Origin: Octopus sinensis
Lineage: Eukaryota
Assembly: GCF_006345805.1 (NCBI RefSeq)
Contig: NC_043012.1
Location: 4,650,001 to 4,714,000 of the forward strand
Reading direction: 5' to 3'
DNA: 64,000 bases
This document shows positions 24,464-24,727 of the stretch, piece by piece. Made by a program: the position numbers and the translations under genes. Under the pieces are notes generated by a model. It did no database searches, was not told the DNA's origin, and saw only the letters and a list, made by a program, of their open reading frames with translations. How positions within the stretch are numbered: position 1 is the first letter of the stretch; each line of letters begins with the position of its first letter.

Positions 24464-24727
24464 TGTTGTGTCTGGGGAGGGTCATTCTCTTTTTAGTACC
24501 TTATTATTTAACACCTCACCGGTAAAATTTCCACTTATTTCTTATTTTTATTCTCCTAAAATTTTCGTTGCGTCTTGCAACCTTTTCAATAGTCTTGATT
24601 CTTGAAAAGGTTGCAAGACGCAACGAAAATTTTAGGAGAATAAAAATAAGAAATAAGTGGAAATTTTACCGGTGAGTGTGTTAAATAATAAGGTACTAAA
24701 AGAGAATGACTCTCCCCAGACACAACA
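24464..24727. repeat. Near-perfect palindrome with about 126-bp arms carrying hammerhead-like motifs at its centre
   Basis: Arms 24464-24589 and 24602-24727. Minus strand 24592-24556 reads CTA TTGAAAA G GTTGC AAGAC GCAAC GAAA AT TT TAG. Related copies at 38982-39229 and 39978-40100. Confidence 0.85.

Follow-up and report, generated by a model that had tools for sequence, protein, structure and literature searches.

The window, by which we mean the whole stretch of 64,000 nucleotides that was analysed (G000:C16:4650001-4714000, within the 2.72-Gb genome of Octopus sinensis), holds three fold-back palindromes, which an earlier note had placed near 24595, 49801 and 53820. Self-comparison of the window located them at 24458-24733, 49711-49894 and 53552-54047, with arms that are 94%, 86% and 90% identical, respectively, and each contains a hammerhead-like core. 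About seven further palindromes were found in the same comparison. The three palindromes are head-to-head insertions of the 3' ends of Penelope-like elements (PLEs). Their parts, together with further copies in the window, are given below, where family positions take the hammerhead core's first base as position 0 (negative values being 5' of it), N is the inner 3' end, carried by the tailless arm, and T is the outer 3' end, carried by the tailed arm.

24464-24602, minus strand: tailless (N) arm of family 1, a PLE 3' end that extends from the inner start site as far as -13 and has its core at 24589-24559.
24590-24601, minus strand: unpaired 12-nt loop, native sequence 5' of the core, present in the tailless arm only.
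24602-24785, plus strand: tailed (T) arm of family 1; its first part is the core (24602-24632), followed by the N site at 24727 and a tail of 58 nt at 24728-24785.
38944-39234, no single strand: counterexample, family 1 pair of one tailed and one tailless arm with arm starts at +36 and +34 (3' of the core); palindrome at 38975-39234.
39973-40119, minus strand: non-inverted copy of family 1, with its 5' end at -21, within the family 1 hot spot.
40138-40547, no single strand: counterexample, inverted insertion of a young PLE with a tailless minus arm and a tailed plus arm.
44104-44491, no single strand: counterexample, family 4 pair with C3-G8 cores at 44374 (plus) and 44239 (minus).
49680-49801, minus strand: tailed arm of family 2; core at 49796-49765.
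49802-49890, plus strand: tailless arm of family 2; core at 49807-49838.
53552-53817, minus strand: tailed arm of family 3 (a 362-nt tandem hammerhead repeat), unit positions -6 to 268; core at 53811-53783.
53812-54350, plus strand: tailless arm of family 3, 540 nt long, starting at the predicted cleavage site (+30) and extending to +208 of the following unit; a second core lies at 54140-54170.

The palindrome near 24595 has the core in both arms and its joint at 24601/24602; the arms start at -13 and at 0, the latter being the first T of TTGAAAA. In the family 1 consensus, the region of the loop holds the short palindrome AGTCAAGACT (-11..-2), and both outer ends of the 24464-24785 insertion sit in (TA)n. 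The palindrome near 49801 also has the core in both arms, which start 2-5 nt 5' of it, and a tail on the minus arm only. At 53812-53817, a tailed arm ending at -6 meets a tailless arm beginning exactly at the predicted cleavage site (+30); the 6-nt overlap of the arms consists of the two stem I strands, and one core lies in the loop. The earlier statement that the stem I strands themselves start the arms at 53774-53820 is therefore correct for this locus. That the inversion falls beside stem I holds for these three joints of the window, but not for the pairs at 38944-39234, 44104-44491 and 40138-40547. In the family 4 pair at 44104-44491, the axis lies about 75 nt 5' of the core (CTGATGA).

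In the young PLE insertion at 40138-40547, about 130 nt of unrelated sequence separate the arms. Family 4 was viewed by eye only and showed a tail on neither arm of the 44104-44491 pair; the tail of this family (44104-44491; L353, L367, L369, L370) apparently measures about 170 nt, which is unusually long for a PLE, and opens with a short TA run. More and older palindromes lie at 55343-55619, where a degenerate hammerhead is possible, 59196-59453 and 59673-59806, and longer inverted repeats with spacers of 170-410 nt at 19220-20129, 32766-34414 and 25737-26265. A U6 snRNA copy at 12867-12967 (Rfam, 77.6 bits) is probably a retrocopy, and the end of an open frame at 34604-35185 (minus strand) resembles, by what we take to be its motif, the restriction-like endonuclease terminus of a non-LTR retrotransposon. 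Outside the window, L109 holds at 7923-8139 a palindrome of an endonuclease-like coding fragment (CxxC/CCDLC) with an axis that lacks a hammerhead.

All three palindromes carry type I hammerhead-like cores with U3-A8 covariation, a G10.1-C11.1 helix II, a palindromic helix III and a short helix I. The available part of PMC4209133 gives the same U3-A8 covariation, G10.1-C11.1 pair, palindromic helix III and short helix I for the minimal type I hammerheads of PLEs, which the cores match; it also mentions dual motifs on opposite strands, 100-700 bp apart. Family 1 differs from the minimal hammerheads of that source in a helix I of only 3 bp and in U17. None of the hammerhead-like cores gave an Rfam match at gathering score. 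In both family 1 and family 2, a self-complementary word adjoins stem I.

Family 1, with 1717 exact anchor matches in the genome, is the 3' end of a coding element. Its long copies (L098, L437 and others) carry a reverse transcriptase (RT) thumb, a CX4CXXC linker and a GIY-YIG motif; the coding part lies on the same strand and is followed by an untranslated stretch of 440-750 nt, the hammerhead and the ends. An ORF combining RT with GIY-YIG at the C terminus, located 5' of the hammerhead in the same orientation, makes family 1 an EN+ PLE, and the inverted 5'-truncated copy, one-sided tail and target duplication expected of an EN+ PLE are also present. The CX2-5CXXC linker before the endonuclease, as defined for Neptune in the part of PMC8557442 consulted, suggests membership of that clade; as the Pfam scores lie under the curated cut-offs (GIY-YIG, E = 0.0011; RVT_1, E = 0.0022), this Neptune-like label rests on motifs and not on a tree. 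Among 20 long family 1 loci in which a direct pLTR-ORF-pLTR partial tandem was looked for, no 5' pLTR running into the ORF was found.

A young PLE relative of family 1, about 70% identical in protein, has its own hammerhead, a homologous 58-nt tail, 1777 exact anchor matches and open frames of more than 1000 aa. The copy in L456 (G000:C29:2281500-2291400; ORF at 3710-6842) has an open frame of 1044 aa with DKSG and YVDD, and that in L457 reaches 1120 aa. No relative of the PLE protein with a solved structure was found at a useful E-value. In L456, the N-terminal part is asparagine-rich, like the N-rich inserts of rotifer PLEs, and the hammerhead has the variant CTGATGC.

The tandem repeat of family 3 is non-coding and has a 362-nt unit with a single type I hammerhead; it is represented by 43 distinct units of 354-362 nt and 1109 exact anchor matches. 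By this layout it is a non-LTR retrozyme, whose tandem non-coding units measure 150-450 nt and each contain a type I hammerhead. It is like the animal non-LTR retrozymes (PMC7229834; bioRxiv 10.64898/2026.07.22.740005) in its 362-nt tandem non-coding unit with one type I hammerhead each and unlike them in that its insertions are inverted and have two fixed ends; PMC7229834 does not use the word 'inverted'. In the family 2 loci, no PLE-like frame of at least 220 aa was found, only the insertion footprint, which is the same as in the other families, and the hammerhead.

Because such palindromes were nearly absent from 20 random 10-kb stretches, in which the five families looked for did not occur at all, breakpoints were mapped from family anchors. 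For family 1, the first 100 of the 1717 matches gave 98 contexts and 89 insertions, namely 43 pairs and 46 non-paired copies; the anchors lie near the 3' end and so impose no selection on the 5' extent. Copies duplicated in L202 and L204 were combined, L208 entered the non-paired class, and the 42-pair tests leave out L178. Among these first 100 matches, 30 of 77 pair-arm ends fell in 0..-25 (8.2-fold, scan-corrected p = 0.001), as did 15 of 31 ends of non-paired copies (7.6-fold). At least one arm ended there in 24 of 42 pairs, and both arms did so in six. The cleavage site showed no excess of family 1 ends (2/108 against 4.9 expected).

For family 2, all 78 matches were used, giving 25 pairs and 47 non-paired copies; the duplicate L374 was removed from the tests of end position, loop and palindrome, and L328 from the palindrome and cleavage-joint test. 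The interval 0..-12 contained 18 of 42 pair-arm ends against 3.9 expected, and the hot spot was about 7-fold within 0-25 nt 5' of the core. Here it was specific to inversions: 18 of 32 pair arms reaching position 0 ended in 0..-12, compared with 1 of 40 non-paired copies (Fisher p = 1.6e-7), a class that includes long copies whose partner may sit beyond the 330 nt searched. A subfamily effect does not account for this contrast, which persists within the larger subfamily. Ends within 3 nt of the predicted cleavage site, which is AT-rich, were also in excess (9/57 against 3.2 expected, p = 0.005), possibly as a footprint of cleavage.

The first 100 of the 1109 family 3 matches yielded 40 pairs, 12 non-paired copies and 92 arms, after one distant segment in L296 had been dropped. 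In this sample there was no excess at -25..0 (5/92, ratio 0.91), nor a significant one at the cleavage site (three ends, p = 0.11). The hot spot of family 3 lay instead 59-83 nt 3' of the core start (26 ends, 4.9-fold, scan p = 0.003), a position that coincides with the 3' foot of a predicted hairpin containing the ribozyme. For the young PLE, 24 of the first 30 loci were usable, the other six having aligned to TA repeat; only 1 of 20 pair-arm ends fell in 0..-25, and four fell at -52/-53. The mapping across genomic copies thus revealed hot spots that differ by family, and the claim that the inversion point lies at or near stem I is partly confirmed: joints cluster just 5' of the hammerhead core in two of the four families mapped (1 and 2) and not in family 3 or the young PLE.

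Three other accounts of the hot spots were tried and rejected. A fixed distance of 125-150 nt 5' of the inner start site fits families 1 and 3 and fails in family 2 (ratio 0.88, p = 0.67). Ends are not drawn to just any short palindrome, as no excess was seen outside the hot spots (9 against 8.7 and 4 against 5.2 expected). A splice acceptor is contradicted by copies that jump upstream from -9/-11 and re-enter at different places. Such family 1 copies, which jump from about -9/-11 (from 0 in L162) to varied upstream positions, were seen in L439 (6540-6550), L444 (5570-5580), L448 (3750-3760) and L162; they suggest that the reverse transcriptase stops and restarts at the hot spot. As the family 1 stop occurs in non-paired and jumping copies as well, it points either to pausing beside the core or to an RNA whose 5' end lies there.

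The arms of a pair differ at their 3' ends. Exactly one arm was tailed in 42 of 43 family 1 pairs, in 20 of 25 family 2 pairs and in 35 of 40 family 3 pairs, the anchor of family 3 lying in the tail so that tailless pairs are under-sampled there; the same was true of 9/10 short and 8/8 long pairs of the young PLE. The five remaining family 2 pairs and the 44104-44491 pair are exceptions. The tail measures 58 nt in family 1 and the young PLE and about 30-60 nt overall, and non-inverted copies end at the same two 3' sites, N and T, as the paired arms do.

This asymmetry bears on the proposed snap-back of reverse transcription from an end that the ribozyme defines. A folded-back strand copies only what it holds, so the arm that extends further 5' must also hold the tail. 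In family 1 the tailless arm extended further 5' in 26 of 42 pairs and the tailed arm in 7 (sign test p = 0.001), and the tailless arm was also the longer one in 11 of 20 family 2 pairs and 7 of 9 young PLE pairs; among the long young PLE pairs it reached further by 1.7-2.8 kb in 5 of 8. With one tailed arm per pair and the tailless arm further 5', as in these 26 family 1 pairs, neither arm can be a copy of the other. Likewise, in the palindromes at 24595 and 53800 each arm contains sequence absent from the other, and in L141, L158, L137, L149, L291, L492 and L505 the partner is a tail-only stub with no overlap to fold onto. Pure snap-back is therefore not supported, since a strand that copies itself cannot gain a tail. 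In family 3, 25 of 37 pairs are compatible with one arm copying the other.

Target duplications of at least 10 nt flank the whole unit in 32 of 42 family 1 pairs, compared with 18% in shuffled flanks; many of them lie in TA repeats and several in unique sequence. At the joints, the arms overlapped by at least 5 nt in 19 of 37 family 3 pairs (17% simulated) and by at least 3 nt in 16 of 42 family 1 pairs (20% simulated), and 10 of 42 family 1 joints contained short inserts. Leaving out pairs with gaps of more than 60 nt or extra segments, the arm reaches of family 3 look independent (median difference 278 against 260 permuted): 11 of 33 pairs differ by more than one unit, and the hot spot at 59-83 occurs in eight long and eight short arms. 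The loops of family 2 are short (median 18 against 45 permuted, p = 0.002), and ties within 5 nt are frequent in family 1 (9/42 against 3.5 expected, p = 0.004). In L008 and L017, the 10-12 nt that precede the core recur at the joint as repeated short templated copies, as by stuttering or iterative joining.

The arms of one pair are closer to each other than different loci are (divergence 7.7% against 10.4%), and polymorphic cells were concordant between arms in 115 of 148 cases against 86.5 expected. By these comparisons both arms evidently derive from the same RNA sequence; the shared alleles rule out two different or unrelated RNAs, and they leave fold-back compatible with the sequences. 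Repeated copying of one palindromic master was also rejected, as only one junction recurred among 42 (L172/L177).

Taken together, we consider it rather probable that each palindrome is a single PLE 3'-end insertion in which both cut target strands primed and the two cDNA 3' ends were joined head-to-head by microhomology. A staggered cut would leave two target 3' ends, each of which would prime reverse transcription on the same RNA sequence, one at its inner and the other at its outer start site; the cDNAs would then meet head-to-head with their 3' ends and be joined where a few bases are complementary. In families 1 and 2, the reverse transcriptase may stop or pause just 5' of an uncleaved minimal hammerhead, and the short self-complementary word beside stem I may favour joining; the stop could be caused by an RNA 5' end, by a pause after the ribozyme fold or by annealing of the palindrome. 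In D. virilis, the start of Penelope is located 46 nt and a 75-nt intron ahead of helix I (PMC2377424, PMC4209133). Ribozyme cleavage likely sets only a minority of the ends. The process would resemble LINE-1 twin priming, in which the RNA is primed from both target strands and microhomology serves to join the cDNAs. The parts of the RNA covered by L1 inversions are not known to overlap; in contrast, the two arms here are duplicates of one 3' end, with their starts at two fixed sites.

Two-ended priming fits the in vitro behaviour of a PLE of the green anole, PAc (Poseidon; PMC11167929). As reported in the part of that study consulted, PAc cleaves and extends both strands and starts at two internal sites that delimit the tail; it is predicted to dimerise and uses mainly uncleaved RNA. 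The octopus families share with it the AT-rich targets and a hammerhead about 100-200 nt 5' of the starts, and probably also the two internal starts and the cutting and extension of both strands. In the same part of the study we saw no link to inverted insertions, and the tails here measure about 30-60 nt.

Several observations count against two-ended priming, namely the short loops of family 2, the excess of ties in family 1, the inversion-specific hot spot of family 2 and the 25 of 37 family 3 pairs compatible with self-copying. Given these, we assign a minority share of the probability to a hybrid course in which both nicks prime, one cDNA copies itself after folding back at a short palindrome or stem, and the product is completed by annealing to the short cDNA of the other nick. 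The final structure would be the same, and such a course agrees with what family 2 shows, short loops and a hot spot specific to inversions, as well as with the shared alleles and the bias to a longer tailless arm. It also fits the symmetric joints on consensus palindromes (6 of 12 symmetric pairs in family 1 and 7 of 11 in family 2), an overlap that is partly an effect of end calling. However, it cannot produce the tail-only partners, and the loops that it requires would measure 1.7-2.8 kb in the young PLE and exceed one repeat unit in 11 of 33 family 3 pairs.

The published reading of head-to-head palindromes is self-priming (PMC3846280, PMC8557442), proposed in the former on antisense RNA. 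Combined with trimming of one tail by the endonuclease (self-priming on an antisense template after Arkhipova 2013; tail origin after Craig 2021, both as far as the parts consulted go), it would let either arm lose its tail and would account for the shared alleles. We hold this combination to be improbable, as non-inverted copies end at the same two sites, these sites correspond to starts of reverse transcription on sense RNA in vitro (PMC11167929), and the tail-only partners are left unexplained.

Reverse transcription to a ribozyme-defined end followed by snap-back through stem I, as the earlier note had inferred, is less probable still. Stem I complementarity does explain the joint at 53812-53817, where the cleavage site stands against stem I, and the family 2 excess at the predicted cleavage site agrees with it. 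Outside the window, however, this geometry was found in only 1 of 42 family 1, 2 of 25 family 2 and 0 of 40 other family 3 pairs, that is in 3 of 107. The ribozyme-defined end is not supported either: cleavage would place the new 5' end on the 3' side of the core (+30 to +32), and the hot spots of families 1 and 2 lie 5' of an uncleaved core, away from the predicted cleavage site. At 24595 and 53800 neither arm lies wholly within the other, Naiad PLEs that lack canonical hammerheads form the same inversions according to the part of PMC8557442 consulted, and the tail asymmetry contradicts snap-back as a general rule. As an explanation of inverted pLTRs, the proposal is partly supported, in that the insertions are of the inverted pLTR type with microhomology joints and two families have a hot spot just 5' of the core; it is not general, given family 3, the young PLE and the Naiad PLEs.

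Fold-back artefacts of reads or assembly are the least probable reading of all, given the target duplications, the fixed unequal outer ends, the 7.7% divergence between arms and three runs, taken from two studies (one of which may be the source of the assembly), whose contigs of 91-94 nt cross paralogous junctions of the same type at about 90% identity, even though the assembly has homopolymer indels between the arms and exact contig matches cross the 24602 joint by only 3-5 letters, with none bridging 31 letters on both sides.

Much of the layout is known already. Inverted pLTRs of EN+ PLEs with a one-sided tail and a target site duplication, such as Pen2a_Av, are described in PMC3846280 and in the legend of Figure 2 of PMC8557442, and the octopus insertions share with them the head-to-head 5'-truncated inverted copy, the tail at one end, a duplication of about 10-13 nt, (TA)n targets and a palindromic or overlapping junction; the inverted copy, the one-sided tail and the duplication are thus published. 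These papers propose self-priming or resolution by the endonuclease and, in the parts consulted, contain neither a breakpoint map against the hammerhead nor a count of tailed arms. PMC8557442 states the formation of tandem and inverted PLE structures and the role of the hammerhead as open questions, and in the parts of the open-access literature consulted we found no paper that maps PLE inversion joints against the hammerhead or proposes twin priming for them. As the layout is known and the ribozyme-adjacent hot spot is family-specific, we regard the result as a refined mechanism and not as a new system.

Therefore, we conclude that the earlier note made a real and partly general observation on a known structure, that snap-back at the cleavage site fails as a rule, and that two-ended priming with microhomology joining is the best reading, which we adopt with some confidence. 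The counts yield predictions for the PAc assay at the bench: one tailed and one tailless cDNA per event, a need for both nicks, and joints that shift with RNA features and not with cleavage. The young Neptune-like PLE of L456 is a candidate enzyme for such in vitro work. More tentatively, and with the odds against it, the PLE hammerhead may serve as a meeting point and not as a cutter, in that templates paired via the palindromic helix III, or a protein-bound fold, would stop the two reverse transcriptases of a dimer so that the cDNAs join there. Such a role, if true, would explain both the inverted pLTRs and the conservation of weak minimal hammerheads.
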